From Elusimicrobiota bacterium (GTDB lineage Bacteria > Elusimicrobiota > Elusimicrobia > Elusimicrobiales > UBA9959), in the NCBI GenBank assembly GCA_019135865.1, contig JAGVVD010000038.1, positions 364 through 64,363 on the forward strand: 64,000 nucleotides of DNA, read 5' to 3'. The notes beneath the pieces were generated by a model. It ran no database searches. It was not told where the DNA came from and saw only the letters and a program-made list of their open reading frames with translations. This document shows positions 4,947 to 56,301 of the stretch, piece by piece. The position numbers and the translations under genes were made by a program. Position 1 is the stretch's first letter, and each line of letters starts with the position of its first letter.

Positions 4947-4976
4947 AATCGTGCGGTGCCCCGGGGAGCCGCCGCG

Positions 4977-5306
4977 ATGTTCAATGTGATCTATTACGTG
5001 TCGCCCCGGGGGGAGAACTTCGTCCGGGATTTTATCCTGTCCCTGCCGGAAAAAGTAGGGAGCAAGGTCGCGGAGCACATAAAGTATCTCTCCCTGACCG
5101 GCCCGCTGGCCAAGCCGCGCTACGCCTGTTATCTGGGCGACAAGATATTCGAGCTGCGCGTCTCATTCGCGCATTACGAGCCGCGGATACTATACTTCTT
5201 TCACTCGCGCGGCATCGTGCTGACGCACGGGTTTCTGAAAAAGGCCCGGGCGGTGCCTCCGGAAGAAATAGAGAGGGCTAAACGGATAAAAGACGGGTTC
5301 CAATAG
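4977..5306 (+). CDS. type II toxin, HigB/RelE-like (phage Gp49-like family)
   Basis: MFNVIYY...GENFVRDFILSLP...IFELRV...RILYFF...IVLTHGFLKK. ATG 4977 has SD ggggag. The track start 4956 is a GTG alternative. Confidence 0.8.
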   Translation: MFNVIYYVSPRGENFVRDFILSLPEKVGSKVAEHIKYLSLTGPLAKPRYACYLGDKIFELRVSFAHYEPRILYFFHSRGIVLTHGFLKKARAVPPEEIERAKRIKDGFQ

Positions 5307-5307
5307 T

Positions 5308-5607
5308 GTGGAGAGACGATATATGAAGAAAAAGGATTATACCCACGAGGATTTCGAGAAAGAATTCCTGAAGACCCCCGCGATGCGGCGGGAATACGAA
5401 CGCGGGGTGGCCGGGCTGTTGATCGCCCACAAGATAGCCGACCTGCGCGAGCGCCATCACATGACCCAGGCCGAGCTGGCGCGCCGTCTGCACACCCGGC
5501 AACAGGTCGTTTCCCGTATTGAGCAGGACAAGTACCGGCCTTCGCTGACCACCCTGGAGAAGATCGCCCGCGTCTTCGGCAAGCGCCTGGAGATAAACTT
5601 CGTCTGA
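5308..5607 (+). CDS. XRE-family HTH antitoxin (HigA-like)
   Basis: HMTQAELARRLHTRQQVVSRIEQ helix-turn-helix, 1 nt after the toxin stop. The likely real start is ATG 5323 (SD ggagag). Confidence 0.85.
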   Translation: MERRYMKKKDYTHEDFEKEFLKTPAMRREYERGVAGLLIAHKIADLRERHHMTQAELARRLHTRQQVVSRIEQDKYRPSLTTLEKIARVFGKRLEINFV

Positions 5608-11451: not shown

Positions 11452-11513
11452 TCCCCTCCTCAGGTTGTGTAATATTGCTTTGTCGAAGAGCAATCACACA
11501 CCCAAGGAGGGGA
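11452..11513 (+). promoter_or_regulatory. long imperfect hairpin sequestering the transposase RBS
   Basis: tcccctcct(11452-11460) pairs with aggagggga(11505-11513, containing the SD). There is an inner stem attgct/agcaat. Confidence 0.5.
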
Positions 11514-12538
11514 TGTATATGAAATTATACGCGGCAATCGACCTGCATTCAAATAACAGCGTGCTTGTAGTGCTGGACGGCGAGGATAAGATCGTCTATG
11601 AAAAGCGGCTGCCCAACGAGCTGCCGGTCATCCTGGCCGAGCTGGAGCCTTACCGGGAACGCATCCACGCGATAGCGGTGGAATCCACGTTCAACTGGTA
11701 CTGGCTGGTGGACGGGCTCATGGACGCCGGCTACGAAGTGAAGCTGGTGAACACGGCGGCGGTGAAGGTCTACGAGGGGCTCAAATACAGCGCCGACGAG
11801 CACGACGCCAGACACCTGGCGCACCTATCGCGCCTTGGCCTGCTGCCCGTGGGACACATATACCCGAAAGAGGACCGCGCCGTGCGCGACCTGCTGCGCA
11901 AGCGCTCGCAGCTGGTGCGCTACCGCACGATGCAGATACTGAGCATACAGAACCTGATAGGCAGGAACAGCGGCAGGCGGATCAACACCGACGGGGTCCG
12001 CAAGCTGACCGACGAGGCGATAGCCGACTACTGCGGCGGCGACGAAGTCCTGGAGCTGGCTATAAAAAGCAACCTCAAGACGCTGCGCTGCCTCGACGGG
12101 CAGACAACCGAACTGGAAGAAGCCGTCCTTAAAAGAGCGAAGCTCAAACCCCAGTTCAAGCAGCTGCTGACGGTGGACGGCATCTGGCATATCCTGGGGA
12201 TGACCATTATGTACGAGGCCGGCGACATGTCGCGCTTCAAGAAAGTCGGCCACTTCGCTTCCTACGCCCGCTGCGTCGGCAGTTCGCGCTGGAGCAACCA
12301 CAAGAAGAAAGGCGAAGGCAACCGGAAGAACGGCAACAAGTACCTGGCCTGGGCGTTCATAGAGGCGGCGCATTACGCGGTGCGCTACAATGATCGGATC
12401 CGCAGATTCTACCAGCGCAAGCGGGACAAGACCAATAAGATAGTGGCGGCCAAGGCGGTGGCGCATAAGCTGGCTCGGGCCTGCTATCACGTGCTGAAAG
12501 AGCAGACGCCCTTCGAGGAGGCGCGCGCTTTCAGTTGA
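11513..12538 (+). CDS. IS110 family transposase (DEDD/RuvC-like N-domain plus Transposase_20 C-domain)
   Basis: MKLYAAIDLHSNNSVLVV... N-terminus. C-terminus LLTVDGIWHILGMTIMYEAGDMSRF...ASYARCV...GNKYLAWAFIEAAHYAV. Confidence 0.9.
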   Translation: MYMKLYAAIDLHSNNSVLVVLDGEDKIVYEKRLPNELPVILAELEPYRERIHAIAVESTFNWYWLVDGLMDAGYEVKLVNTAAVKVYEGLKYSADEHDARHLAHLSRLGLLPVGHIYPKEDRAVRDLLRKRSQLVRYRTMQILSIQNLIGRNSGRRINTDGVRKLTDEAIADYCGGDEVLELAIKSNLKTLRCLDGQTTELEEAVLKRAKLKPQFKQLLTVDGIWHILGMTIMYEAGDMSRFKKVGHFASYARCVGSSRWSNHKKKGEGNRKNGNKYLAWAFIEAAHYAVRYNDRIRRFYQRKRDKTNKIVAAKAVAHKLARACYHVLKEQTPFEEARAFS

Positions 12539-20653: not shown

Positions 20654-21340
20654 ATGGCCGACACCGACAAAAAAGACAAGCCCGACCTGCTCAGGCAGAT
20701 GTCCAGCGTGGTGAGCCACGAGATACGCAACCCGCTGGCTATAATCTCCAATTCGCTCTATTTCATAAAGACCAAGCTGTCGGCCGGCGGCGCGGGACCC
20801 GATCCCAAGGTCGCCAAGCATCTCGGCATCATCGATGGCGAGGTGAAGCACGCCAACGAGGTCATCGAGGAGATGCTCTGCTTCACGCGCGACCGCGAAC
20901 TGCAGCTGGCGCCGGCCAAGATGAACGCCGGTATCGACGACATCGTCGGCGCCTTCCCGCTGCCCGAGGGCGTGAAAGTGGAGGCCGCGCACGACCCCGG
21001 CGACCCCAGGGTCAGCGTCGATATAGAGGCTATGCGTTACGCGCTGCGCCTGGTCATGACCAACGCGGTGCAGGCGATGCCCGAAGGCGGCACGGTGAAG
21101 ATAGAGTGCGCGCACGACGCGAACACGGCCCGGCTGACCTTCACAGACGGCGGACCGGGTTTCCCTAACGGGGACGGCGAGAAGGCCTTCGAGCCCTTCT
21201 TCACCACCAAGCCGCGCGGCGTGGGCCTGGGCCTGAGCATAGTCCGCAAGTACGCCGAGCGCCACGGCGGTTCGGCGAAGGCGGAGAACGCTCCCGGCGG
21301 CGGCGCGCGGGTGATCATCTCGCTGCCGCTGCTGAAATAA
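20654..21340 (+). CDS. histidine kinase, HisKA plus HATPase_c only (no sensor domain)
   Basis: H-box VVSHEIRNPLAI. G-boxes DGGPGF and GVGLGLSIV. TAGAAT lies 9 nt upstream of the ATG. Confidence 0.85.
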   Translation: MADTDKKDKPDLLRQMSSVVSHEIRNPLAIISNSLYFIKTKLSAGGAGPDPKVAKHLGIIDGEVKHANEVIEEMLCFTRDRELQLAPAKMNAGIDDIVGAFPLPEGVKVEAAHDPGDPRVSVDIEAMRYALRLVMTNAVQAMPEGGTVKIECAHDANTARLTFTDGGPGFPNGDGEKAFEPFFTTKPRGVGLGLSIVRKYAERHGGSAKAENAPGGGARVIISLPLLK

Positions 21341-21401
21341 GTCGGCTGGACGGGCGGCCCCGCGGGAAGGGAAAGTTTTAATTTCGGAGGAGGATGGCCA
21401 T

Positions 21402-21983
21402 ATGACGAATTGTCCCAAATGCAGTTCCGAAACGCTGGTGAAGACCGAGGCGCTGGGGAATATCCCGCTCGATGTCTGTCCCGGCTGCAAAGGCATCTTT
21501 TTCGACAAGGGCGAGCTCGAGGCCCTGCTCAAGCAGTCGCAGGGCGATGTGCCCGCCGGTTTCGAGCTGATCTCGCCCAGGCCCGAGGGGCTGCCCTGCC
21601 CCAGGTGCAATGTGAAGATGTCGCGCGGCGGCCTGGTCAACCCTCTTCTGCTGGTGGACAAGTGCGGGGCCTGCGGCGGCGTCTGGCTGGACCCGCGCGA
21701 GCTGGCGCTGCTCAAGAAACTGCTGGGCCTGACCGGCGGCGCCGAGAGCGTGGAAGTCTCCCGGCCGGCCCCGGCCGCACCGGAGCCCGAGAAAAAGGGT
21801 CTCCCGCTCCTCAAATACGCGCTGGTCCTGGCCGGGCTGCTGGGGCTGGGGATGGTCAGCTACGAGCTGTACGTTTACTTCAGCCCGGAGGGTTCGGCTC
21901 CCGGCAGTTTCTCCGCCGCGATGGCGTCGTTCGGCTTCCTGCTCTTCCTCGGCGGCGGTATAGGTTCGATGAAGGTCAAATAG
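21402..21983 (+). CDS. double zinc-ribbon (TFIIB-type zf) protein with C-terminal TM helices
   Basis: CPKC...CPGCKGIFFDKGELE and CPRC...CGACGGVWLDPRELA, followed by two hydrophobic helices. Confidence 0.7.
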   Translation: MTNCPKCSSETLVKTEALGNIPLDVCPGCKGIFFDKGELEALLKQSQGDVPAGFELISPRPEGLPCPRCNVKMSRGGLVNPLLLVDKCGACGGVWLDPRELALLKKLLGLTGGAESVEVSRPAPAAPEPEKKGLPLLKYALVLAGLLGLGMVSYELYVYFSPEGSAPGSFSAAMASFGFLLFLGGGIGSMKVK

Positions 21984-22009
21984 AGGTCCGCGGGGTCCGC
22001 GGCCGTGAA

Positions 22010-22040
22010 ACCGCCGGGGGCCCCCCGGCGGTTTTATTTT
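22010..22040 (+). terminator. hairpin plus T-tract, followed by TAAAAT (22043-22048)
   Basis: accgccggggg/cccccggcggt followed by tttatttt. Confidence 0.55.
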
Positions 22041-22073
22041 GCTAAAATAGGCCGGTAAGTCCAAGGGGAGCGC

Positions 22074-22445
22074 ATGGCGGGAATACTTATCATAGACGAC
22101 GACAAGGATTTCAGCGGCCTCGCGGCGGCTTATTTCTCCAGACAGGGCCATACCGTCACCCTTGCCGGCGGCGGCCGGGAAGGACTCTCGAAGGCCGTCT
22201 CCGCCGGACCCGACATAGTGTTCCTCGACATCATGATGCCGGACATGAACGGGATCGAGGTGCTGCGCGAGCTCAACTCGGACCCCGAGACTTCCGGTAT
22301 CCCCGTGCTCGTGCTCACCGGCAGGTACATAGACCCGGGCATGAGCGATATGTTCGCGCAGGAACGCAACTACCGCGGCGTGATCTCCAAGCCGGTGGAC
22401 CTCGACGCGCTGCAGCGAAAGATGAACGAGGTCCTCAAGATCTGA
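22074..22445 (+). CDS. single-domain response regulator (receiver only)
   Basis: ILIIDDD...FLDIMMPDMNG...LVLTG...ISKP. Confidence 0.9.
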   Translation: MAGILIIDDDKDFSGLAAAYFSRQGHTVTLAGGGREGLSKAVSAGPDIVFLDIMMPDMNGIEVLRELNSDPETSGIPVLVLTGRYIDPGMSDMFAQERNYRGVISKPVDLDALQRKMNEVLKI

Positions 22446-22469
22446 CCCCGGCCGCGGCCGCCGGACCGG

Positions 22470-22856
22470 ATGGAGCGAAAAATGCCTTCCATACTGTTGA
22501 TAGACGATGACGACGATTTCAGCGGGCTGACCTCCGAGTTCTTCACCCGGCGCGGTTATAAAGTGGAACTGGCGACCGGCGGAAAGACCGGCCTGGCCAA
22601 GGTGGCCGACTCGCCTCCCGACCTGATCTTCCTCGATATCATGATGCCGGACATGAACGGGATCGAGGTGCTGCGCGAGCTGAGCTCGGATTATGACACG
22701 GCCTCCATCCCGGTGCTGGTGATGAGCAGCCGGAACGTGGACGCGGGCATGCAGAGGATGTTCGCGCAGGAACGCAATTTCAAGGGTTTCGTCGCCAAGC
22801 CGCCGAATTTCGACGCCCTGGAGATGAAGGTCGCCGGCCTCATCCGCGGCAGTTAG
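22470..22856 (+). CDS. single-domain response regulator (receiver only), paralog of the previous gene
   Basis: ILLIDDD...FLDIMMPDMNG...VAKP. Confidence 0.9.
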   Translation: MERKMPSILLIDDDDDFSGLTSEFFTRRGYKVELATGGKTGLAKVADSPPDLIFLDIMMPDMNGIEVLRELSSDYDTASIPVLVMSSRNVDAGMQRMFAQERNFKGFVAKPPNFDALEMKVAGLIRGS

Positions 22857-42413: not shown

Positions 42414-42447
42414 AAAAAGGCCCCAGACAGGGGCCTTTTTCGTTTTT
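42414..42447. terminator. bidirectional terminator (ends both the aguA-like gene and the ech operon)
   Basis: aaaaaggcccc-agaca-ggggccttttt cgttttt. Confidence 0.75.
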
Positions 42448-42462
42448 GCGGAGAGAAAACGG

Positions 42463-42837
42463 TTACTTCGCAGGGGCCGTCGGCGGCGCGGCCGGGCCGG
42501 TCTTCTTCTCAACGCTGCCGGCTCGGTCGGAGCCGTAAGGAGCGGGGCGCGCGCTGCGCGCCTCTATGCACTTCTTCGGGCAGACCTCCACGCAGCGCAT
42601 GCAGGCCAGGCAGCGCAGCTGGTCCACCTGCCAGGTCTTCTCGGCCCGCACCACGGTTATGGCCTTGCTGGGACACTTGTTCTGGCAGATGCCGCAGAAA
42701 ATGCACTCGGCCTCGCGCATGGTTATGCTGCCGCGCGTGCGGGCGAAAGGTTCGCGCACCTCGTGCGGGTAAAGCCTGGTGGCGGGCTTCTTGAAGAGAT
42801 TAGCGAGAGCGGCGGGTATGAGCGGAGAGATGGCCAT
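42463..42837 (-). CDS. echF: Ech hydrogenase subunit F (2x[4Fe-4S] ferredoxin, NuoI-like)
   Basis: CIFCGICQNKCP and CLACMRCVEVCP. Confidence 0.85.
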   Translation of the reverse strand: MAISPLIPAALANLFKKPATRLYPHEVREPFARTRGSITMREAECIFCGICQNKCPSKAITVVRAEKTWQVDQLRCLACMRCVEVCPKKCIEARSARPAPYGSDRAGSVEKKTGPAAPPTAPAK

Positions 42838-42843
42838 TGCTCG

Positions 42844-43917
42844 TCACCTTTCCATGCAGCTGATGCACGGGTCTATGGTCAGTATTATGGTCGGCACGTC
42901 GGCCAGCTCCGTGCCCTTGAGGAGTTTCACCACGGCCGGCACGTTGGCGAAGGTGGGCGTGCGCAGGCGGAAGCGCTCCAGCATGCGGGTGCCGTTGCCG
43001 CGCACGTAGTAAATGGCCTCGCCGCGCGGCTGCTCGGCGCGGTAGAAGGCCTCGCCGTTGGGCGCGGAGGCGATCTTGGCGGCTATGCCGTCCGCGGCCA
43101 TGGCCCCCGCGGCCTGGGCTATGATGTCTATGGACTGGAAGATCTCCTTCACGCGCACGCGGCAGCGGGCGTGGCAGTCGCCGTCCTTTTCCACCGCGGC
43201 CTCCCACCGCAGGCCCTCGTACATGGGGTTGCCGAGGCGCTGGTCCGAGACCACGCCGCTGGCGCGCAGCATGGGGCCCACTACGCCTAGCTCCCGGGCC
43301 TCGGCTTCGGGCAGCACGGCGAGCCCGGAGAGGCGGTGCTTAACGGTATAGTCGTTGAGGAAAATGTCGGTGATCTCTTTGAGCTGCGGCTTCATGGCCG
43401 TGAGCCGGGAGGAAATGCGCGAGAGCGTAGCGTCCTCGATATCCTTCCTCATGCCGCCGACCTTCACGATATTGAAGATCACGCGGCCGCCGGTGGTCTC
43501 CTCGAACATGTCCAGCACTTCCTCGCGCAGGCGCCAGGTCTGCATGAACAGGTTCTCGAAGCCGAAGGCGTCGGCCGCGAGCCCCAGCCACAGCAGGTGG
43601 CTGTGCACGCGGGAGAGCTCGGCCAGGATCACGCGCAGCTGCCGCGCGCGGCGGGGCACCGGCAGGGCGAGGACGCTTTCCACCGCCGAACTGTAGCCCA
43701 TGCCGTGCATGAAGCTGCAGATGCCGCAGACCCGCTCGGCGATCATCACGTATTCTTCGAAATCGCGCTTGGGGGCCAGCAGCTCGAGGCCGCGGTGGAT
43801 GAAGCCTATGGAAGGGACGGCGTCGATCACGCGCTCATTGTCGAGCACCAGGTCGAAGCTCAGCGGCTCCGGCAGCACCGGGTGCTGGGGGCCCAGCGGG
43901 ACGATGGTGGTCTTCAT
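42844..43917 (-). CDS. echE: group 4 [NiFe] hydrogenase large subunit (NuoD-like)
   Basis: N-terminal RVCGICSFMH and C-terminal DPCISCMER Ni-Fe ligands. 357 aa with no C-terminal extension. Confidence 0.9.
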   Translation of the reverse strand: MKTTIVPLGPQHPVLPEPLSFDLVLDNERVIDAVPSIGFIHRGLELLAPKRDFEEYVMIAERVCGICSFMHGMGYSSAVESVLALPVPRRARQLRVILAELSRVHSHLLWLGLAADAFGFENLFMQTWRLREEVLDMFEETTGGRVIFNIVKVGGMRKDIEDATLSRISSRLTAMKPQLKEITDIFLNDYTVKHRLSGLAVLPEAEARELGVVGPMLRASGVVSDQRLGNPMYEGLRWEAAVEKDGDCHARCRVRVKEIFQSIDIIAQAAGAMAADGIAAKIASAPNGEAFYRAEQPRGEAIYYVRGNGTRMLERFRLRTPTFANVPAVVKLLKGTELADVPTIILTIDPCISCMER

Positions 43918-44309
43918 GAGTTCGCCCCCGGGACCGGCTTCTTCACCGGCGCCGCCACGGCGAACGGCACGCGCACCGCGGTCTTGTAGAGGGTCCCCTT
44001 GAAATCCAGCACCAGCCCCTCGAACTCCACGCCGAACTGCTCGCGGATCTCGTTCTCGTAGAGGAAGGCGGAGAAATAATCCCCGGAGACGCTGGGCACT
44101 TTCTGCCCGGGCGCGGCGGTCAGGCGCAGGTGGCTCAGCGCGCCGTCCTTGTCGAAAGAATAGGTCAGCTCCACGGCCGGGGCCTCGCCCGCGGCGGCCA
44201 CCGGCAGCGCCACGGCCGAGATGACCGCCAGGCGCGAGCCCGCGGCGCGCAGGCCCTTCACGCGCTCCGGCAGCGCGGCGGCTTCTATGAGCGCGATATC
44301 CATGGTCAT
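43914..44309 (-). CDS. echD: Ech hydrogenase subunit D (NuoC/30-kDa-like)
   Basis: FLYENEIREQFGVEFEG motif and its position between the small and large subunits. Confidence 0.75.
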   Translation of the reverse strand: MTMDIALIEAAALPERVKGLRAAGSRLAVISAVALPVAAAGEAPAVELTYSFDKDGALSHLRLTAAPGQKVPSVSGDYFSAFLYENEIREQFGVEFEGLVLDFKGTLYKTAVRVPFAVAAPVKKPVPGANS

Positions 44310-44737
44310 TTCTTCGCCTCCGCGGCGGCCCGCTTCTGCTCCAGCACGCCGAGGGCGCGGACTATGCCGTCTATGATGGCCTCGGGCCTGGCGGCGCAGC
44401 CCGGCACGTACACGTCCACGGGCAGCACCTTGTCGGCGCCGCCCTTTACGTTGTAGCAGTCGGCGAACACGCCGCCCGAGGTGGCGCAGATGCCCACGGC
44501 CAGCACCACCTTGGGCTCGGGCATCTGGGCGTAAAGATTGCGCACCACCTCTTCGTTCTGGTGGTTGATGGAGCCGGTCAGCAGCAGCAGGTCGGCGTGG
44601 CGCGGGTTGCCGGTGTTGATCACGCCGAAGCGCTCCGCGTCGTAAAGCGGGGTAAGGCAGGCCAGCACCTCTATGTCGCAGCCGTTGCAGCTGGAGCCGT
44701 CGTAGTGAAGCAGCCAGGGCGACTTTTTAAGCGACAT
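44306..44737 (-). CDS. echC: group 4 [NiFe] hydrogenase small subunit (NuoB-like)
   Basis: SCNGCDIE...GICATSGG...VPGCAARPE. Confidence 0.9.
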   Translation of the reverse strand: MSLKKSPWLLHYDGSSCNGCDIEVLACLTPLYDAERFGVINTGNPRHADLLLLTGSINHQNEEVVRNLYAQMPEPKVVLAVGICATSGGVFADCYNVKGGADKVLPVDVYVPGCAARPEAIIDGIVRALGVLEQKRAAAEAKK

Positions 44738-45594
44738 CAGTTGCCCCCCAGCGCGTACAGGGCCAGCAGGTTGCCGCCGGCCAGCAGCAGCGTTATGGTC
44801 CAGGTGGAGGACAGCGCCAGCTGCCAGCGCACGCGGGCGTTGGTGTTATCGGCCAGCACTTCCAGGAAATAGGTCAGGGCCACGGCGGCCAGCGCCAGCG
44901 GGGCGCTGAAAGCGAAGAACAGGTACACCAGCCCCAGCAGCAGGATATTCTCGTACCAGTGGGTGATCTCGATGAGCGCCAGAGTGCGGCCGCCGAGGTC
45001 GGTGGTGATGCCCTTCACTATCTCCTGGTGGGCGTGGTGGGAATAGGACAGGTCGAAGGGCGACTTGCGCAGCTTCATCGTGAGCACGTAGAAAAGGCAC
45101 AGGAACACGCCCGGCAACTGCTTTATCAGCGGCGCGCCGGAAGCGGCCACGGCGTGGAAGTTCAGCGAACCGGAGACCTTGTAGATGGCCGCCGCGGCTA
45201 TCAGCAGCGCGGGCTCGGCGGCGAGGATGATGATCAGCTCGCGCTCGGCGCCCACGAAGCTGTACGGCGAAGCGGAGGAGAAGGCCGCCGCCACGAGGAA
45301 CAGCGCCGCCACGGTGAAGACGAAGATGACCAGCAGGATATCGCCCCCGCCGAAGAACAGCGCGCCGGCCAGGGCCATGAAGAGCAGGTGGCACAGCGCC
45401 AGCGGGTACTGCAGGCTGTTCACCTCCACGTCGCCCTTGGAGAAGAGCTTGGCCACGTCGTAGAAGGGCTGCAGCAGCGGCGGGCCCACGCGGCGCTGCA
45501 TGCGGGCCGAGACTATGCGGTCGGCGCCGGCCAGCAGGCCGCCGGCCAGCGGGGCCAGCAGCGCGTAGGCGAGAGCGGGCATCAGTTTTTCCAT
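44737..45594 (-). CDS. echB: Ech hydrogenase membrane subunit B (NuoH-like)
   Basis: 285 aa, 8-TM-like, with RRVGPPLLQPFYDVAKLF. Confidence 0.85.
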   Translation of the reverse strand: MEKLMPALAYALLAPLAGGLLAGADRIVSARMQRRVGPPLLQPFYDVAKLFSKGDVEVNSLQYPLALCHLLFMALAGALFFGGGDILLVIFVFTVAALFLVAAAFSSASPYSFVGAERELIIILAAEPALLIAAAAIYKVSGSLNFHAVAASGAPLIKQLPGVFLCLFYVLTMKLRKSPFDLSYSHHAHQEIVKGITTDLGGRTLALIEITHWYENILLLGLVYLFFAFSAPLALAAVALTYFLEVLADNTNARVRWQLALSSTWTITLLLAGGNLLALYALGGN

Positions 45595-47513
45595 ATTACC
45601 CCCGCCGCCAGCATGAAGGCCACCACGGCCCCCAGGAAATAGTTGGAATAGCGCAGGATGGCTCCCGAGTCAAAGAAGCCGTCGAGATAGTAGTTCTTCA
45701 GCGTGATCTCGCGCCAGGAGCCCATGGCCCCACCCACCAGCAGGTGCGAGTCCATCTGCCGGCCGCAGACGTAGGTGTCGGAGAGGCGGTAGGCCGCGCG
45801 CCGGTGCAGCGCCCAGGCCAGCGCCGGCAGCGCCACCAGCAGGAAAAGCAGCATGGTTATGACGCCGTAATTGAAGTTCCCCAGCCCGCCGGGGGCGCCG
45901 TACTGGGCCAGCAGGTAAGGCTCCACCAGCCAGGCAGACAGCAGCGGCAGGCCCGCGCAGACGGCGAAGCTCAGCAGCGCGTGGGCCCACTCGGCCGTCC
46001 ACTCGTCGTTGCCTATGGTGGCCTCGCGCTTCTTTTCCACGCCGGGCTGGTCGCGCATCGAGAGGATCTTGCCCAGCAGTTTGCTCCAGTAGAACACCGT
46101 GGCGGCGCTGCCGTAGGCGATCATGATCACCAGCGCCGCGCCGAAAGCCGACGGGACCTTGAGGAAGGCCTCTATGGCGGCCCACTTGCTGACCACCACG
46201 CCGAAGGGCGCTATGAACATGCCGGCGATGCCCGCCACGAACAGCAGCGCGGTGACCGGCATCTTGACGATGAGGTTGTCGTAGTTCTCCATGTCCTTGG
46301 TGTAGAAGCGGTTCTCCACCGTGCCCACCACCAGGAACAGCAGGGACTTGGAAACGGCGTGGAACACTATCAGCACCAGGCCTATCCAGACCGCGGCTGG
46401 GCCGCCCACGCCGCCGCAGGCCACTATCAGGCCCAGGTTGGCCACGGTCGAGTAGGCCAGCACCTTCTTGACGTTGGGTTCGGTGATATTGACGATGGAG
46501 GCGGCCAGGAAGGTGCCGGCGCCTATCAGCGCGACGGCGTTGCCCACGGCCGTGCCCGCGATAACGGGCGCCATCTTGAGCACCAGGAAGACGCCCGCCT
46601 TGACCATGGTGCTGGAGTGCAGCAGCGCGGAGGTGGGCGTGGGGGCCACCATGGCGCCCAGCAGCCACGACGAGAACGGGAACTGCGCGGCCTTGGTGAT
46701 GGCCGCGTAGCAGAGCAGCGCGGCCGGCAGCAGCGCGGCCCCGCGCAGGGCCAGCATCTTGTCCAGTTCCACTATGCCGCTGTTCCGGGCCAGCCAGATC
46801 AGCGCCAGCGAGAAAGCCAGCCCGCCGGTAAGGTTGATGTTCAGGGCGAGGAAAGCGTTGTTGACGGCCTCCCTGGTGCGGGTGTGGCCTATCAGCAGGA
46901 AGGAGCAGACCGTCGTGACCTCCCAGAAGAACAGCATGTGGCCCAGGTGGTTGGAGAAGACCACGCCGAACATGGCCGAGAGGAAGACGAAAAGCAGGAA
47001 GAAGAAGAAGTTGCGCCGGTCGGGCAGGCGCGGGTAGTGGCGGTGGAAATCGCGCATGTAGCCCAGCGCGTAGACGCAGATCAGCGGCCCCAGCACGCCG
47101 ATCACCAGCGCCATCAGCAGCGAGAACTTGTCGGCGTAAAAAGCGTTGTCCGCGGCCACGCCCGGCGCGCAGGCCAGGTCGAAATACAGCGTGAGGCCGG
47201 CCTGGGCCAGCGCCAGCGCCCCGGCCAGCGGGCGCTTATACTTGAAGGCGTAGCGCAGCATGACGCCGGCCAGCCCCAGGCTGGCGGCGAGGAAAAGGGT
47301 CTCCAGGCCGTGGATCTCGCCGCGGAAATAATAGGCCCCTGCGCCGCCCGCGGCGGCGCAGGCCAGCGCCCCGGCCCCGGTGAGCAGCGCGCCCGCGCGC
47401 ACCAGCAGATTGCGCGTACGCAGGCCGGGAGCCGCCAGGAGCGCCAGCGCCAAGGCCAGCGGGCAGAGTATAAGGGAAGCTACCAGGTAAGACACAGCCG
47501 TATCAGTGTGCAT
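45582..47513 (-). CDS. echA: Ech hydrogenase membrane subunit A (NuoL/antiporter-like)
   Basis: 643 aa, polytopic, with a proton-pump motif region (WLLGAMVAPTPTSALLHSSTMVKAGV). Confidence 0.85.
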   Translation of the reverse strand: MHTDTAVSYLVASLILCPLALALALLAAPGLRTRNLLVRAGALLTGAGALACAAAGGAGAYYFRGEIHGLETLFLAASLGLAGVMLRYAFKYKRPLAGALALAQAGLTLYFDLACAPGVAADNAFYADKFSLLMALVIGVLGPLICVYALGYMRDFHRHYPRLPDRRNFFFFLLFVFLSAMFGVVFSNHLGHMLFFWEVTTVCSFLLIGHTRTREAVNNAFLALNINLTGGLAFSLALIWLARNSGIVELDKMLALRGAALLPAALLCYAAITKAAQFPFSSWLLGAMVAPTPTSALLHSSTMVKAGVFLVLKMAPVIAGTAVGNAVALIGAGTFLAASIVNITEPNVKKVLAYSTVANLGLIVACGGVGGPAAVWIGLVLIVFHAVSKSLLFLVVGTVENRFYTKDMENYDNLIVKMPVTALLFVAGIAGMFIAPFGVVVSKWAAIEAFLKVPSAFGAALVIMIAYGSAATVFYWSKLLGKILSMRDQPGVEKKREATIGNDEWTAEWAHALLSFAVCAGLPLLSAWLVEPYLLAQYGAPGGLGNFNYGVITMLLFLLVALPALAWALHRRAAYRLSDTYVCGRQMDSHLLVGGAMGSWREITLKNYYLDGFFDSGAILRYSNYFLGAVVAFMLAAGVIWKN

Positions 47514-47566
47514 TTTACAGAGACGCGGTGTTCAATACGACTAAACGGGGGGAACGGCGGCGGGCG

Positions 47567-47589
47567 CCGCTCCCCGGGGAGGGGAGCGG
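47567..47589 (-). other. 9-bp-stem GC hairpin directly after the RR stop and 54 nt before echA, with no U-tract
   Basis: ccgctcccc-gggga-ggggagcgg. Confidence 0.5.
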
Positions 47590-48003
47590 TCAGGAAGGGC
47601 GCTTGCCCTTTTTCTCTTTGGCCGCTTTGAGGGCGGCCTCGATTTCCTCGGCCAACTTGGTCGGGGGGATGGGTTTGGCGAGGAATTTGCGGACCGGGAG
47701 CCAGTCTGCGTCCTTGTCCTCGTCGAACTTCCAGTCGCTTCTCATGTGTTCCTGCACTCCGGTCAGCATCAGCACCGGCATGTCGGGGAACTTTATGCTC
47801 ACGTCCCGGGCCAGCTCGAAGCCGGAAGTGAACTCCTCCATCATTACGTCCATCACGAGCAGGTCCGGCCGCCGCTTCTCCAGCAGCTTCCAGGCGTCGT
47901 CGCCGGTATACGCGACGGAAACCTCGTGTCCTTTGGCTTCAAGCACCAGTTTATTGGCGTCCACCAAACCCGCGTCGTCGTCTATCAGAAGTATATGGGC
48001 CAT
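47590..48003 (-). CDS. single-domain response regulator
   Basis: MAHILLIDDD...LLVMDVMM...FLAKP. Confidence 0.9.
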   Translation of the reverse strand: MAHILLIDDDAGLVDANKLVLEAKGHEVSVAYTGDDAWKLLEKRRPDLLVMDVMMEEFTSGFELARDVSIKFPDMPVLMLTGVQEHMRSDWKFDEDKDADWLPVRKFLAKPIPPTKLAEEIEAALKAAKEKKGKRPS

Positions 48004-48049
48004 ATGGTTCCAACTCTCCGGAGGGTCGTCTCTGACTAAATGGTATTAA

Positions 48050-49201
48050 TTATGCGGCCTTAAGGTCAATCGAGCCCGGCGCCGGAAGGGAGAGGGTGAA
48101 GCGCGACCCTTTCCCGGGCTCGCTCTCCACTTCTATGTCCCCGCCCGCCTGCAAGGCGAGCTTCCGCGCTATAGCCAGGCCCAGTCCGCTGCCCGGTATG
48201 CCGATGGTCGCGCGGTTCTTGATACGGACGAATTCGCTGAACAGGCGCGCCGCGTCCTTTTTTTCCATGCCGATGCCCGTATCCTCTACGGTGATGCGCA
48301 CTTTCCCTCCGTCCGCGGCCGCGGAGGCGCGCACCAGGCCGCCGTCCCGGTTGTATTTCACGGCGTTGGTGAAAAGGTTGTTGAGTATCATTCCGACTTC
48401 GGAGGGGTCCGCCTCCACGAGCAGACCGGCCCCTTCCGTTTCCAGTTTTATCCCGCGCCGCGCCGCTTCGGCGGCCACGCCCTCGGCGGCGGCGGCCAGC
48501 GCGCCGGCCACCTCAAGCGCGGCGGGAGCGCGCCTGAACTGGCCCGACTCGATGCGCGTCAGGTCCAGCAGGTCCGCTATCATCTTGCGCATCCCGTCGG
48601 TGCGCTCCGAGCATTTGGCGATGATGCCGGCGTAGGCCGTCATGTCCTTGCCGAGCGTCATGTCCCGCATCACGTCCAAGTAGGCGTCGAAGGTGTTGAT
48701 GGGGGCTTTGAGCTCATGCGCCAGTACCGAGATGAACTGGAAGCGGATCCGCTTCTTCTCCTGCGCCAGCAGGCGCGCGTGCCGGCTGACGATGAGGTGG
48801 TGGGCCGCTTTCTTTACGGTGTAGCGCACCTCCTCCGGGGTACAGGGCTTGGCCAGGAAATCGAAGGAGCCGAGGCGGGTCGCCTGTATGGCAGTCTCGA
48901 TGTTGGCGTAGGCCGTCATGATTATGACGGCCGTCTCCCGCTTCTCTTCCGAGAAGCGGCCTAGAATGTCCATGCCGCTGATCCCCGGCAGTTTGTAGTC
49001 CAGGAGCACCAGGTCGGCGGGGTCCGTTTCCATCCGGGTGAGGAGTTCCTCCCCGGTGGAGACCAGGCTCACTTCGAGTTCCGCCTCCACGCCGAGGGTG
49101 CGGACCTCGGGCCTGAAGCCGTCGAGGATGATCTTTATGGCCGAGCACATCTTGGGCTCGTCGTCGCAGACTATCACCTTGAGTTTTTCGCTGACGGCCA
49201 T
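48050..49201 (-). CDS. hybrid histidine kinase (REC-HisKA-HATPase_c)
   Basis: VIVCDDE...LVLLDYKLPG, H-box SVLAHELKAPI, and DTGIGM...GSGLGLAI. Confidence 0.9.
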   Translation of the reverse strand: MAVSEKLKVIVCDDEPKMCSAIKIILDGFRPEVRTLGVEAELEVSLVSTGEELLTRMETDPADLVLLDYKLPGISGMDILGRFSEEKRETAVIIMTAYANIETAIQATRLGSFDFLAKPCTPEEVRYTVKKAAHHLIVSRHARLLAQEKKRIRFQFISVLAHELKAPINTFDAYLDVMRDMTLGKDMTAYAGIIAKCSERTDGMRKMIADLLDLTRIESGQFRRAPAALEVAGALAAAAEGVAAEAARRGIKLETEGAGLLVEADPSEVGMILNNLFTNAVKYNRDGGLVRASAAADGGKVRITVEDTGIGMEKKDAARLFSEFVRIKNRATIGIPGSGLGLAIARKLALQAGGDIEVESEPGKGSRFTLSLPAPGSIDLKAA

Positions 49202-49202
49202 T

Positions 49203-51179
49203 TCATTCGCCCCCTCTGGGTAGAGTGATGGTGAACACGGTGCCGGTGGGGCCGGCCGCGGGATCGCTGTTGGAGGCCACCTTCAGCTCGCCCTTGTGCA
49301 TCCTCACTATACCGTAGGTTATCGCCAGGCCCAGGCCGGTGCCCTTGCCGATCTGCTTGGTGGTGAAGAAAGGCGTGAACACCTTGGGAAGGTTCTCGGC
49401 CGAAATGCCCGAACCGGTGTCGGCCACCTCTATGCGGACGGCGGACTCATCGTCGAGCAGACGCACGTCCACCCGCCCGCCGCCCGGCATCGCGTCGGCC
49501 GCGTTGACCACCAGGTTGGTCAGGGCCTGTATGAGGCGGTCCCTGTCCACTTCGATCTCGGGGTCCCGCATCCGGTTCTCCAGGACCGCGCTGATCCCCG
49601 GCGGCAGGGTCAAGGTCTTGAGAAAAGCCCCGACCAGTTCCGGAAGGCCGGTCTTCTCCGGGACCACGCGGTTCTGCCGCGCGAAATTCAGAAGCCCGGA
49701 AACTATCTTCTTGCAGCGGTCCGATTGCTCCACGATGTTCTGGAGCCACTCCTTCATGGAGGGGTCGGTGCAGCGCTCCAGCATGATATGGGAGTACATC
49801 AGCACTATTCCCAACGGGTTGTTGACCTCGTGGGCGATACCCGCGGCGAGCTGGCCTATGCTGGAAAGCCGTTCGGAATCGGCCAGTTGCTGGCGCGTCT
49901 CGGAGAGCTCCCGGTAGAATTTGCCCACCTTCGCGAGCGAATCGTTGAGCTGGTCGATGGTATAGGGCAGGCACATCCGCTCTTCGGCGAAACCGCGGCA
50001 GATGGCGGAGGCGTGGGCGCGGCAGGTGTCGTAGCCGCAGGCGCCGCAGTTAAGCTCGTCCTCCGCGCTGTTCTTGCCCATTTCGGAAAGCACTTCTTTC
50101 AGCGCGGTCTCGGACACCTCCGGCTGCGGCTGGGGGTCCGGCTTGTAGACGCGGCTGAGGTCCAGGTCCCTGAAACTCTCCACGTCCCGATACCACTTGC
50201 CGGTATCCAGGCCGGCCATGGTCACCCGCGCGCAGCGGCTGACCTGGAAGCGGCGATTGAACAGCGGGATGTCCTTGTCTATGCCCGGCCCCATGATGCA
50301 GCCCATGCAACTGGTCACTTCCAGCAGCCGGGTGTTGAGCTGCTCGTTGCGGAATTCCCTTATGGCCTCCACGAACTCCGTTCGTCCCTCGGCGGAGACC
50401 GCATTGCCGGTCAGCAGGTCCTCCGGGATGCCGGCCGACTGCAGCAACCCGCGTCCTATGGGGTACAGGCGGCCCTTGCCGGCCCTGGGCGGATCGAAAT
50501 CGGACGGGACTATGTTCGAAGTTCCGGTTTTTTCCCCGAAGATACGGTCCAGTTCGCTGAAGGTCAGCGCGGCGTCCACGTCCATATCGAGGGCTTCGAG
50601 CTTTTTGGCGACGCAGGGGCCGATGAAGACGACTCGCAGCGCGGCACCGTGCAGCCGGCGGGCCACCCTGGCGGCTGCCGCCATGGGGGAGACGACCGGC
50701 GCCAGGTTCGGCACCAGGTCAGGGAAATACTTGGTTATATGAGAGACCACCGCCGGACAGGTGGCGGCGATCAGGCGCGTGGTGGCGGGGTTGGTGAGCA
50801 GCTCCTGGTAGCGTTGCGACACCAGGTCGGCGCCGAAAGCCACTTCGTGCACGTACTTGAAGCCGAGCGCGCGCAGCGTGCCCACCAGGCGCTGCTGATC
50901 CCATTCGGGGAACTGGCAGGGCCAGCTGGGGGCCACCAGGGCCGCCGTTTCCGCCCCGGAAGCCAGCAGGTCCAGAACCTCGCGGGTGGAATCGTAGAAC
51001 CGCTTGGCGCCGCGGCCGCAGACCCGCACGCAGTTGCCGCAACCTATGCAGAGTTCGCTCATGACCTCGGCGCGGCCCTTGTGGATGCGTATGGCCTTGG
51101 CCGGGCATTCGCGCACGCAGGTATAGCAGGCCCGGCATTTGTCGGCGTCGGTCCAGATGAGCTTGTCGGTCTTCTTCAT
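49203..51179 (-). CDS. sensor histidine kinase with N-terminal 2x[4Fe-4S] ferredoxin, [FeFe]-hydrogenase-like (H-cluster-type) domain and a CxxC Fe-S motif
   Basis: CRACYTCVRECP and CIGCGNCVRVC. H-cluster-like motifs AATCPAV, GPCVAKKLE and EVTSCMGCIMGPG. Also CGACGYDTCRAHASAIC, H-box IAHEVNNPL and DTGSGI...GTGLGLAI. Confidence 0.85.
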   Translation of the reverse strand: MKKTDKLIWTDADKCRACYTCVRECPAKAIRIHKGRAEVMSELCIGCGNCVRVCGRGAKRFYDSTREVLDLLASGAETAALVAPSWPCQFPEWDQQRLVGTLRALGFKYVHEVAFGADLVSQRYQELLTNPATTRLIAATCPAVVSHITKYFPDLVPNLAPVVSPMAAAARVARRLHGAALRVVFIGPCVAKKLEALDMDVDAALTFSELDRIFGEKTGTSNIVPSDFDPPRAGKGRLYPIGRGLLQSAGIPEDLLTGNAVSAEGRTEFVEAIREFRNEQLNTRLLEVTSCMGCIMGPGIDKDIPLFNRRFQVSRCARVTMAGLDTGKWYRDVESFRDLDLSRVYKPDPQPQPEVSETALKEVLSEMGKNSAEDELNCGACGYDTCRAHASAICRGFAEERMCLPYTIDQLNDSLAKVGKFYRELSETRQQLADSERLSSIGQLAAGIAHEVNNPLGIVLMYSHIMLERCTDPSMKEWLQNIVEQSDRCKKIVSGLLNFARQNRVVPEKTGLPELVGAFLKTLTLPPGISAVLENRMRDPEIEVDRDRLIQALTNLVVNAADAMPGGGRVDVRLLDDESAVRIEVADTGSGISAENLPKVFTPFFTTKQIGKGTGLGLAITYGIVRMHKGELKVASNSDPAAGPTGTVFTITLPRGGE

Positions 51180-51203
51180 GATGCGGCGTCTCCGGCCGCG
51201 CTC

Positions 51204-51596
51204 TCAGCGCCGGCGGTCTTTAAGCAGGGATTCTATCTCGCAGAGCAAAACGGTCGGGGAGACCGGCTTCTCCATGAAGCGGTGCACCGGCAGCCAGGAC
51301 TTGTCCTCGTCGAAAGACTGCTTCCAGGCGTCGTCCATGTACTCGTAGACGCCGGTCAGCATGATCATCGGCAGGTCCGGGAAGGAACCACCGATATGCC
51401 TGGCCAGTTCGAAACCGGAGTCGAAATCCTCCATCATAACGTCAAGGACCACTATGTCGGGCTTGTCCTTTGCCAGGAACTCGCGGGCCTCGGCGCCGCT
51501 GTGCGCGTGCGAGACCTTGTGCTTGTTGGCCGAGAGGACTATCGTGTTGGCTTCCAGGAGTTGCGTGTCGTCGTCTACCAGCAGAACATGGGCCAT
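51204..51596 (-). CDS. single-domain response regulator (paralog of 47590..48003)
   Basis: MAHVLLVDDD...IVVLDVMM...FMEKP. Confidence 0.9.
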   Translation of the reverse strand: MAHVLLVDDDTQLLEANTIVLSANKHKVSHAHSGAEAREFLAKDKPDIVVLDVMMEDFDSGFELARHIGGSFPDLPMIMLTGVYEYMDDAWKQSFDEDKSWLPVHRFMEKPVSPTVLLCEIESLLKDRRR

Positions 51597-51843
51597 GGCG
51601 GTTCCTCGACTGCGGTGTTTGAAAGGCGTGACCGACCGTATATATAAGGATAAATTCTTAGCGTCGTGCTTGTCAAGGAACGGGGAGGGGCCTCTGATCC
51701 AATATCCCGCGGGCGCCGCATGGATGACGCGCAGAGGTACGTGTCGTCGGGATCGCCGGGGCCGCGCCGGCGGTTTTACTATAATCCCGGTAGCGGCCGC
51801 CGGGGACCGTTGCCGTCAGCGCCGCGCACTGGAGGGAGGGACC

Positions 51844-55845: not shown

Positions 55846-56301
55846 ATGAATTTCAGGCATTCAAGGTCCGCGGCGGCCGCCGCCGCCGGCAGGTCGGGCG
55901 CCGGGCTCGGCGCGCTGATAATGAAACTCGATTCCCTGCTTTTTCTGGCCTCCGCGGAGGCGGGGTCCCCCGAAAAAGTCAAGCCCAGGCTGGCGGAGGC
56001 CCGTTCGGCCCTGGGGGAACTTTTCTCGGCCTGCGAGCGGCTGGACCCCTCGACGGCCCGGGTCCATGCCGGGACGCCCTCCCGTTCCGGGGCGGGAAGG
56101 ACCGGCCGCCTCACCCCCAAGGAGAAGGAGATAATAGTCCTTATAGCCCGGGGCCGGGCCGACAAGGAACTGGCCCGCGAACTCGGCGTTTCCGTCAATA
56201 CCATACACGCGCACCGCAATAATATAGCCCGCAAACTGGACATACATAAGCAGACGGACCTGGTGCGCTTCGCCATAAAGGAGAAGCTCGTCAGGGTCTG
56301 A
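55846..56301 (+). CDS. LuxR/GerE-family HTH regulator with an uncharacterised N-terminal region
   Basis: LTPKEKEIIVLIARGRADKELARELGVSVNTIHAHRNNIARKL. Confidence 0.85.
   Translation: MNFRHSRSAAAAAAGRSGAGLGALIMKLDSLLFLASAEAGSPEKVKPRLAEARSALGELFSACERLDPSTARVHAGTPSRSGAGRTGRLTPKEKEIIVLIARGRADKELARELGVSVNTIHAHRNNIARKLDIHKQTDLVRFAIKEKLVRV

Follow-up and report, generated by a model that had tools for sequence, protein, structure and literature searches.

A putative histidine kinase-linked [FeFe]-hydrogenase-like sensor and a predicted receiver relay encoded upstream of an Ech hydrogenase in Elusimicrobiota

The minus strand of contig JAGVVD010000038.1 from an Elusimicrobiota bacterium, of which a 64-kb stretch was analyzed (hereafter, the window), carries a compact cassette of ten genes in which a complete set of genes for Ech, a group 4 [NiFe] hydrogenase, is preceded by four genes for two-component signaling proteins. 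In the order of reading, these are a single-domain receiver (RR1), a sensor histidine kinase (HK) fused to an [FeFe]-hydrogenase-like domain, a second kinase with an N-terminal receiver (REC-HK), another single-domain receiver (RR2), and then echABCDEF. We propose that the ten genes form one or two tightly coupled transcription units, in which a sensor of the [FeFe] group C1 type would report H2 to a four-component phosphorelay that would control Ech; judging from sequence comparisons, we put the probability of this reading at roughly 0.55. Most likely, the relay is H2- or redox-responsive and appears to have been recruited to an older partnership between a receiver and Ech.

All ten open reading frames (ORFs) were recovered in the ORF table of the window, the signaling part consisting of RR1 (51204..51596, 130 aa), the sensor kinase (49203..51179, 658 aa), REC-HK (48050..49201, 383 aa), and RR2 (47590..48003, 137 aa), the last of which is directly upstream of echA. 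The intergenic gaps within the cassette are 1–76 nt, with REC-HK starting 1 nt after the sensor kinase, and, at a DNA GC content of 64%, the GC content of third codon positions is 0.80–0.93 in all ten ORFs, marking a high-GC3 coding frame. A first-pass annotation, made from the sequence alone, had described ten co-directional, closely packed genes at these positions; the ORF table reproduces this layout, and Pfam supports all of the domain calls made at that time. The same annotation held that the cassette encodes no DNA-binding or other output domain and that the window contains no hyp or hydEFG genes. Both statements stand: neither Pfam nor NCBIfam detected a DNA-binding or other output domain in the four signaling proteins, Pfam searches of ~58 ORFs revealed no hyp, hydEFG, or other hydrogenase genes in the window outside the cassette, and tblastn with representative queries gave no match in the window for HydA/E/F/G, NuoE/F, or Rex.

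The sensor kinase combines a hydrogenase-like and a signaling part in the same polypeptide. Pfam searches yield Fe_hyd_lg_C (1.2e-39, residues 78–298), Fer4_10 (2e-9), and FeS (PF04060, 3.2e-7), as well as HisKA (4.7e-13) and HATPase_c (4.8e-26). The Fer4 families span residues 8–58, where two N-terminal CxxCxxCxxxCP motifs correspond to 2x[4Fe-4S], and PF04060 spans residues 376–405, where the four cysteines of a C-terminal cluster motif, Cx2Cx4Cx16C (C378/C381/C386/C403), are located; in a motif census, this motif was present in 85 of 85 relatives. In the AlphaFold2 model, the H-domain has a predicted local distance difference test score (pLDDT) of 85–97, and a long helix starts right after C403 and runs to the H-box His450. 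The best Foldseek matches are CbA5H, DdHydAB, TmHydA, and CpI, with E-values down to 9e-20, the kinase part being matched to ZraS, and a sequence search of the PDB gives the same picture. The presence of an Fe-hydrogenase domain in this kinase, suggested at first reading, is thus confirmed by both the profile and the fold matches to solved [FeFe] hydrogenases. The kinase boxes are also readily recognized (AHEVNNPL, with H450, NLVVNA, DTGSGI, FFTTK, and GTGLGL).

The cofactor-binding motifs, as aligned by HMMER to TmHydA and HydA1, depart from those of catalytic enzymes in specific positions. In L1 (AATCP), the proton-relay residue Cys299 (CpI numbering) is replaced by Thr; in L2 (GPCVAKKLE), M353 is replaced by Gly, with K358 and E361 retained; and in L3 (EVTSCMGCIMGPG, EVTSCMGC), M497 is replaced by Thr. 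Across 22 relatives with 53–81% identity, no variation occurs in the cysteine ligands of the H-cluster (C141, C189, C291, and C294), in APS, CPA, SPM, GPCxAKKxE, and CxGCxxGxG, or in the four cysteines of the C-terminal motif. By these features, the sensor kinase is best classified as a predicted member of the [FeFe] group C1 with HydS-like substitutions; in HydDB, this group is defined as "histidine kinase-linked (putative)" (PMC5037454). The earlier description of such proteins as a bioinformatic class agrees with this definition and with thousands of relatives: among the candidates scored, 7,689 matched the sensor kinase at E<=1e-20. The substitutions resemble those in two biochemically characterized, putatively sensory enzymes, TmHydS of Thermotoga maritima (group C) and TamHydS of Thermoanaerobacter mathranii (group D), both of which carry a pair of N-terminal clusters along with a Cx2Cx4Cx16C motif near the C-terminus, have lost Cys299, and have the methionines replaced (Land et al., PMC8163306); at the M353/M497 positions, the window kinase has Gly/Thr and TmHydS has Gly/Ser. 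Unlike these two proteins, the window kinase has no PAS domain, its cluster domain running straight into HisKA/HATPase, and the likeness described here is one of motifs.

The REC-HK has an N-terminal receiver (Response_reg, 2e-21) followed by HisKA (1e-9) and HATPase_c (1.7e-26), without a sensor domain and without an output domain; its motifs include the H-box LAHELKAPIN, the receiver Asp within DLVLLDYKLPG, NNLFTNA, DTGIGM, and GSGLGL. For RR1 and RR2, Pfam reports Response_reg only (2.8e-15 and 2.2e-17, respectively). The two receivers are paralogues with 52% identity, both with intact phospho-acceptor pockets (D8–D10, D52, T81, and K110), and the alpha4 region of RR1 is extended and carries W91 and W101. 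All the residues required of a phosphorelay are in place: the H-box and the N, G1, F, and G2 boxes in both kinases, and the acidic pocket, Asp, Thr, and Lys in the three receivers.

Downstream of RR2, the ech genes follow in the order of NuoL-, NuoH-, NuoB-, NuoC-, NuoD-, and NuoI-like subunits, according to Pfam, all on the minus strand. Specifically, they encode the antiporter-like membrane subunit EchA (NuoL/MrpA-like, 45582..47513, 643 aa; Proton_antipo_M 4.4e-43, Proton_antipo_N 1.9e-8), the NuoH-like membrane subunit EchB (44737..45594, 285 aa; NADHdh 6e-38), the NuoB-like small subunit EchC (44306..44737, 143 aa; Oxidored_q6 2.1e-31), the NuoC-like EchD (43914..44309, 131 aa; Complex1_30kDa 2.9e-6), the [NiFe] large subunit EchE (42844..43917, 357 aa; Complex1_49kDa 2.8e-58, NiFeSe_Hases 2.5e-12), and the ferredoxin-like 2x[4Fe-4S] subunit EchF (NuoI-like, 42463..42837, 124 aa; Fer4 x2). 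EchC retains four cysteines (C17, C20, C84, and C114) for one [4Fe-4S] cluster, and EchF contains two CxxCxxCxxxCP motifs. The Ni-Fe ligand motifs of EchE, RVCGICSFMH and the C-terminal DPCISCMER, are invariant in 18 relatives, and there is no C-terminal extension. Although the best solved relatives of EchE are subunit alpha of the membrane-bound hydrogenase MBH (6cfw_L, group 4d; 2.4e-74) and HycE of the formate hydrogenlyase FHL (7z0s_E, group 4a), relatives at 59–82% identity bear the Joint Genome Institute (JGI) name "ech hydrogenase subunit E", and the six-gene layout fits Ech. Indeed, the Ech of Methanosarcina barkeri, Desulfovibrio gigas, and Caldanaerobacter (group 4e) has the same six-gene order, subunit sizes, and Ni-Fe motifs, and no C-terminal extension of the large subunit. 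The gene order and the Ni-Fe motifs on which the initial Ech assignment was founded are thereby corroborated.

If the cassette is transcribed as a unit, its predicted start is a promoter-like site upstream of RR1 (51645..51676, minus strand; consensus scan and conservation), composed of TTGACA (51671–51676), an 18-nt spacer, and TATCCT (51647–51652), with a score of 10/12 in the consensus scan. The -10 element is overlapped by a palindrome, TAAGAATTTATCCTTA (consensus TAAGGAT-N2-ATCCTTA, 51645–51660; also as TAAGGATTTATCCTTA), a candidate operator that occurs once in the 64-kb window against 0.05 occurrences expected by chance. In the window and three related cassettes (L051, L082, and L083, see below), TTGACAAG-N9-TAAGGATTTATCCT is invariant in the midst of unconserved DNA, and the palindrome looks like an operator for a dimeric regulator. 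At the other end, an intrinsic-terminator-like hairpin (42414..42447) lies between the convergent echF and an agmatine-deiminase-like gene; it has the form AAAAAGGCCCC-TGTCT-GGGGCCTTTTT, that is, A-tract/GGCCCC-loop-GGGGCC/T-tract (42414–42440). The bidirectional terminator noted previously 3' of echF can indeed be read from the sequence in this form.

Within the cassette, the widest gap is the 76-nt spacer between RR2 and echA (47514..47589, minus strand), for which the first-pass annotation had described a GC hairpin without a U-tract and a TTTAGTCGT motif, all of which are present. RNA folding yields an 11-bp stem (47549–47575) and an alternative 9-bp stem (47567–47589), neither with a U-tract, with a folding energy of -24.8 kcal/mol (z=-3.1). 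The box TTTAGTCGT (47537–47545) is located downstream of the hairpin and is partly conserved across the variants as (T/C)(A/G)GTCGTA; no Shine-Dalgarno sequence is evident before echA. A hairpin of differing sequence occupies the same place in L051, L082, and L167 and is weak in L083, so that it is found in four of the five sequence variants, with mixed z-scores (-3.1, -2.8, -1.7, +0.8, and -0.7); a conserved functional RNA element is, given these scores, not claimed. The hairpin and the box may act in attenuation or in RNA stability, or may belong to an internal promoter. A scan of the entire window against Rfam at gathering thresholds produced no matches, and hence no known riboswitch or leader in the spacer or in the upstream region. 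As a separate observation, the two spacer hairpins are mutually exclusive, with the common segment GGGGAGCGG (47514–47592, minus strand), and, because the 5' arm of the first hairpin begins 3 nt after the RR2 stop codon, a terminating ribosome could favor the second hairpin.

The full ten-gene cassette was found in at least six contigs, namely, the window, L051 (a metagenome-assembled genome, MAG, labelled uncultured Elusimicrobiaceae), L082 and L083 (two JGI metagenomes), and L167 and L168 (groundwater metagenomes, with contigs ending inside ech). Compared with the window, the identity is 76–80% for the sensor kinase, 75–80% for REC-HK, 81–88% for the receivers (RR1, 85–87% in L051, L082, and L083; RR2, 81–88% in the related cassettes), and 76–97% for the Ech subunits. 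The flanks are wholly different between the window, L082, and L083; L051 has the left-hand neighbors of the window, but its cassette, as a whole, points the other way with respect to them. Furthermore, the nucleotide homology with L051 and L083 stops exactly at 51676, where the -35 hexamer starts. The changed flanks, the inversion, and the edge of homology indicate that the ten genes together with the promoter behave as one movable unit. The synteny of kinase and ech genes is thus kept in all five relatives amid different flanks. Nevertheless, among the named relatives the closest are MAGs of Elusimicrobiaceae (L051; P0133), and the linkage to Ech is confined to one narrow lineage, the named members of which are such MAGs, so that conserved synteny is weaker evidence here than it would be across phyla.

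Outside this lineage, the kinase keeps different company. The family was surveyed in GTDB species representatives, for the best 80 of 595+ genome matches (46–79% identity), which come from Planctomycetota, Hydrogenedentota, Bacteroidota, Myxococcota, Acidobacteriota, Verrucomicrobiota, and other phyla; neighbors were counted by ORF clustering in the 64 of these 80 loci with >=4.5 kb of sequence upstream of the kinase. The canonical layout is Rex - HydC (NuoE-like) - HydB (NuoF-like) - HydA (TSCCP/CPGGC) - HK - RR - REC-HK, often with HydE, HydG, and HydF downstream of the HK-RR-REC-HK module. The 64 loci include HydA in 51, NuoE in 48, NuoF in 47, Rex in 41, HydG in 28, HydE in 24, and HydF in 15; most of those without a called HydA still have NuoE/NuoF/Rex or maturase genes. 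Ech was found beside the kinase in a single locus of the 64, L051. In 58 of the 80 loci, an orthologue of REC-HK follows the sensor kinase, either immediately or after a receiver, and the order HK-RR-RECHK-RR recurs in several other phyla. These results agree with the literature: in groundwater Elusimicrobia, the gene for a group C hydrogenase fused to HATPase precedes those of a trimeric group A hydrogenase and has Rex close by (Méheust et al., 10.1101/765248), and, of the 53 C1 genes of Hydrogenedentota, 21 are neighbors of group A3 genes (PMC11406978). Together, the survey and the literature indicate that the sensor-kinase module was already known and that its usual partner is HydABC, a bifurcating [FeFe] hydrogenase, and the position of the relatives beside HydABC, Rex, and HydE/G/F argues for a hydrogenase-related signal. 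The original suggestion that the relay is dedicated to Ech accordingly holds within one narrow lineage and does not extend to the family at large (HydA in 51/64, Ech in 1/64).

The survey also revealed that, in Bacteroidales loci (L040, L041, L044, L048, and others), a second putative sensor is encoded ~2–6 kb upstream of HydC. It is a group-C-like protein with a CxGC L3 and a Cx2Cx4Cx16C motif, beside an unidentified 394-aa gene (cluster c11), so that two different putative sensors flank one hydrogenase, on opposite sides of HydABC.

When the relatives of EchE are ranked by identity, the cassette clade (94–82%) is followed by three proteins at 71, 69, and 64% and then by a large cloud at ~60%. 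In the three intermediate loci (L084, L085, and L086, respectively), a single-domain receiver is located directly upstream of echA, and no kinase was found within the 1.4–5.8 kb of sequence available upstream of the receiver; the 64% relative (L086) is labelled Elusimicrobiaceae. Among ~48 metagenome Ech loci with 54–61% EchE identity and usable upstream sequence, a receiver was found in one (L141) and kinases in none. In L141, where EchE is 57% identical, a receiver of the same subfamily (L141:1600–1986) overlaps the echA start codon by 4 nt, and no kinase was detected on the 8.2-kb contig. The promoter palindrome is not conserved in any of these four kinase-less loci. In a neighbor-joining (NJ) tree, RR1, RR2, and the receivers of L084–L086 and L141 form a clade (96/100) apart from the receivers of HydABC modules, save for the receiver of the L029 module, which is placed within the clade; RR1 clusters with the receivers from RR-ech operons that lack kinases (NJ bootstrap, 72/100). 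The Ech-linked receivers share the unusual pattern MAH(I/V)LL(V/I)DDD ... DVMME ... LTGV ... W(L/I)PV(H/R)(R/K)F(M/L)xKP. It appears, then, that the conserved, older partner of Ech in this lineage is the single-domain receiver and not the kinases. The simplest history would be that an RR-echABCDEF operon came first, that HK and REC-HK were recruited from a HydABC-type module, and that the receiver was duplicated, giving rise to RR1 and RR2.

One more locus with both types of neighbors, L001, requires separate mention. It is 99.945% identical to L051 (L001:10001–11998, L051:7250–9220) from kinase codon ~373 through the last gene of the Ech operon, and upstream of that codon the two are unrelated. 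The L001 kinase is a mosaic in which a sensor half of the HydABC type (58% identity to the window clade and 63–73% to the canonical types) is joined to a second half with the Ech-clade cluster and kinase, which is 92–95% identical to L083; the mosaic reflects either a natural in-frame exchange of sensors or chimeric assembly of the metagenome. The idea of L001 as one module serving both HydABC and Ech was downgraded and is not relied on, in view of the mosaic kinase and the near-identity to L051. Two Rex-box-like palindromes, TTGTGAAATATCTCACG and CTGTGAATGGTTTCACAA, are found in L001:9143–9360, in the divergent region between two Rex genes, which is ahead of HydCBA in one direction and of the kinase/Ech genes in the opposite one; the promoter palindrome of the cassette is not conserved in L001, which has these Rex boxes instead.

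The mechanism that we envisage would start at the H-cluster, where H2 would react slowly (the proton-relay Cys being replaced by Thr) and would shift the redox state of the chain leading to the C-terminal [4Fe-4S] cluster. Since C403 lies at the foot of the helix to H450, the redox state of this cluster would set the balance between the autokinase and phosphatase activities. The sensor kinase would then pass phosphate to RR1 and to the receiver of REC-HK, and REC-HK would pass it to RR2, the conserved neighbor of echA; we infer this order of transfer from the gene order and from the recurrence of HK-RR-RECHK(-RR) elsewhere. Having no output domain, the phosphorylated RR2 (RR2~P) must act via a protein partner, which could be an unlinked transcription factor binding at TAAGGAT-N2-ATCCTTA or the Ech complex itself. 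Ech forms H2 at the expense of reduced ferredoxin, so that, physiologically, the relay is most naturally read as product feedback: the accumulating H2 would adjust the level or the activity of Ech. A precedent is available in Thermoanaerobacterium saccharolyticum, where deletion of hfs, including the gene for HfsB, a PAS-type sensory [FeFe] protein, lowers hyd and ech transcripts (reviewed in PMC8924675).

Several observations weigh against this proposal. The role of group C1 proteins is listed as putative in HydDB (PMC5037454), and, in one study, the canonical H-cluster motifs could hardly be found in them (PMC11406978). The hydEFG genes, required for assembly of the [2Fe] subcluster, were not found in the 64-kb window. 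The L3 spacing throughout the kinase family is Cx2C and not Cx3C as in catalytic enzymes. Should the kinase be an Fe-S redox sensor rather than an H2 sensor, its degenerate H-domain would hold only [4Fe-4S] clusters and would report the ferredoxin/NAD(H) state, tuning Ech to the supply of reduced ferredoxin. Along with the L3 spacing, the elusive motifs, and the lack of hydEFG in the window, the absence of the proton relay would fit such a role, as would the three accessory clusters, which could exchange electrons with ferredoxin, and the usual proximity of the relatives to Rex, another redox sensor. We nonetheless consider a pure redox sensor rather unlikely. The four cluster cysteines and the [2Fe]-contacting APS, K of PCxxK, and SP are invariant across phyla, a conservation not easily accounted for unless the cofactor is bound; the maturase genes HydE, HydG, and HydF are adjacent to the relatives in 16–30 of the 80 loci; the Cx2C spacing also occurs in PAS-type group-C-like proteins of the same loci, the adjoining HydA having CPGGC; and TmHydS and TamHydS share the substitutions and yet bind a functional H-cluster (PMC8163306).

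Further difficulties pertain to the link between the H2-sensing relay and Ech. The order of phosphotransfer is taken from gene order alone; the spacer hairpin and the conserved box may allow separate transcription of ech; Ech is beside the kinase in only one of the 64 surveyed loci; and, with Ech subunits 76–97% identical among the cassettes, the conservation could partly reflect recent common descent. It is very unlikely, in our view, that the adjacency involves no dedicated control, with the relay serving other targets, e.g., a distant HydABC, and ech placed nearby through lineage-specific rearrangement. Such an accident would agree with the family-wide association of the module with HydABC, with the restriction of the Ech linkage to one narrow clade, and with the hairpin and box between RR2 and echA, but it is contradicted by the composition and order of the cassette, which were kept through flank changes and inversion, by the receiver-ech pairing, which is older than the kinases, and by the single conserved 5' promoter and single 3' terminator. 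As for the output, RR2~P or RR1~P might bind Ech directly and, without recourse to a transcription factor, gate the assembly or the activity of the complex, which we hold to be quite improbable. There is no output domain anywhere in the cassette, a same-clade receiver precedes echA in four lineages without adjacent kinases, overlapping it once, and an extended alpha4-beta5 surface with invariant Trp residues is conserved among the receivers, all of which would suit this possibility. Conversely, the conserved palindrome over the -10 element points to a DNA-binding regulator of the cassette, and, as is generally known, receivers of the single-domain type frequently serve as sinks for phosphate or as intermediates in a relay. 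The full version of this scheme, in which an H2-sensing [FeFe]-type relay would end in a stand-alone receiver that docks onto Ech and switches it on or off post-translationally, is likewise doubtful; if true, receiver docking would amount to direct product-feedback gating of a complex-I-like ion pump by a two-component system.

Comparison with known systems helps to define what is new in the cassette. The kinase fusion and the HydABC/Rex context are already known, and a regulator beside a hydrogenase is not in itself surprising. The group C1 kinases encoded beside the trimeric group A3 HydABC and Rex in Elusimicrobia lineage V and Hydrogenedentota have the same 2x[4Fe-4S] part, H-domain, C-terminal cluster, and kinase core, and group C1 members from many phyla are 46–56% identical to the window kinase and likewise precede the REC-kinase and a receiver of the single-domain type. 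Unlike in the HydABC-linked loci, here echABCDEF, a [NiFe] group 4 hydrogenase, is downstream, the order is RR-HK-RECHK-RR and not HK-RR-RECHK, the receivers belong to a different clade, and there is no Rex or HydEGF nearby. In turn, the cassette differs from ~47 of the 48 surveyed Ech operons with 54–61% EchE identity, which have no two-component genes upstream, in that echA is preceded here by a receiver and, in one subclade, by the whole relay. Taken together, these comparisons suggest that the cassette is a rare, lineage-specific rewiring of a known sensor-kinase module from the bifurcating [FeFe] hydrogenase to the [NiFe] hydrogenase Ech. The first-pass annotation knew of no characterized sensor/Ech pairing of this kind, and, in keeping with that, a full-text literature search found no published report of a group C1 kinase/Ech operon; a redox paper on C. 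thermocellum mentions Ech and kinases in unrelated contexts only.

The logic of a sensor hydrogenase coupled to a histidine kinase is shared with HoxBC-HoxJ-HoxA of Cupriavidus necator and HupUV-HupT-HupR of Rhodobacter capsulatus (HydDB group 2b), in which a slow sensor-type hydrogenase and a histidine kinase control the expression of energy-conserving [NiFe] hydrogenases. In contrast to the Hox/Hup systems, to which it is not homologous, the cassette has a sensor of the [FeFe] class that is fused to the kinase, its putative target is the H2-evolving group 4 Ech and not an uptake hydrogenase, and no NtrC-type DNA-binding regulator is encoded. HfsB, unlike the window kinase, is neither adjacent to ech nor a histidine kinase fusion. 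Multi-kinase relays that end in single-domain receivers, with the output via protein-protein contacts, are exemplified by RedCDEF of Myxococcus and DivJ/PleC-DivK of Caulobacter. Similarly, the cassette has two kinases, several receivers, and no DNA-binding output in the operon, a likeness of generic domains, with a different signal and a different target.

Group C "sensory" [FeFe] hydrogenases are widespread, and their signaling role is putative. The cassette offers a compact test case, with the putative sensor, both kinases, both receivers, the candidate promoter/operator, and the enzyme all contained in 9.2 kb, which is small enough for transfer to a heterologous host. The module appears to be portable between hydrogenase classes, from the bifurcating [FeFe] HydABC to the membrane [NiFe] Ech, and this portability supports H2 or a linked redox state, rather than an enzyme-specific cue, as the signal. 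For many fermenters, Ech provides a key step of energy conservation, and the presence of a stand-alone receiver beside echA even without the kinases hints at an unexplored mode of Ech control.

The genes that flank the cassette are unrelated to hydrogen metabolism: by Pfam, an agmatine-deiminase-like protein (PAD_porph), a PfkB kinase, PAP2, and MgtE are encoded on one side, and a nitroreductase, a trypsin-like protease, and radical-SAM/SPASM, HEAT-repeat, and LuxR-type helix-turn-helix (HTH) proteins on the other. The LuxR-type HTH protein (55846–56301) was considered as the missing output of the relay and rejected, because it has no receiver domain and is not kept beside the cassette elsewhere. 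Many ORFs of the window have no Pfam match at all. A second small signaling cluster, again without an output domain, is found on the plus strand at 20654–22856 and consists of a HisKA/HATPase protein of 228 aa that has no sensor domain, a zinc-ribbon protein, and a pair of single-domain receivers. Finally, the window harbors an IS3-type transposase pair (190–1546), an IS110-family transposase (11465–12538), and a Gp49/HTH_3 (HigBA-like) toxin-antitoxin pair (4956–5607).

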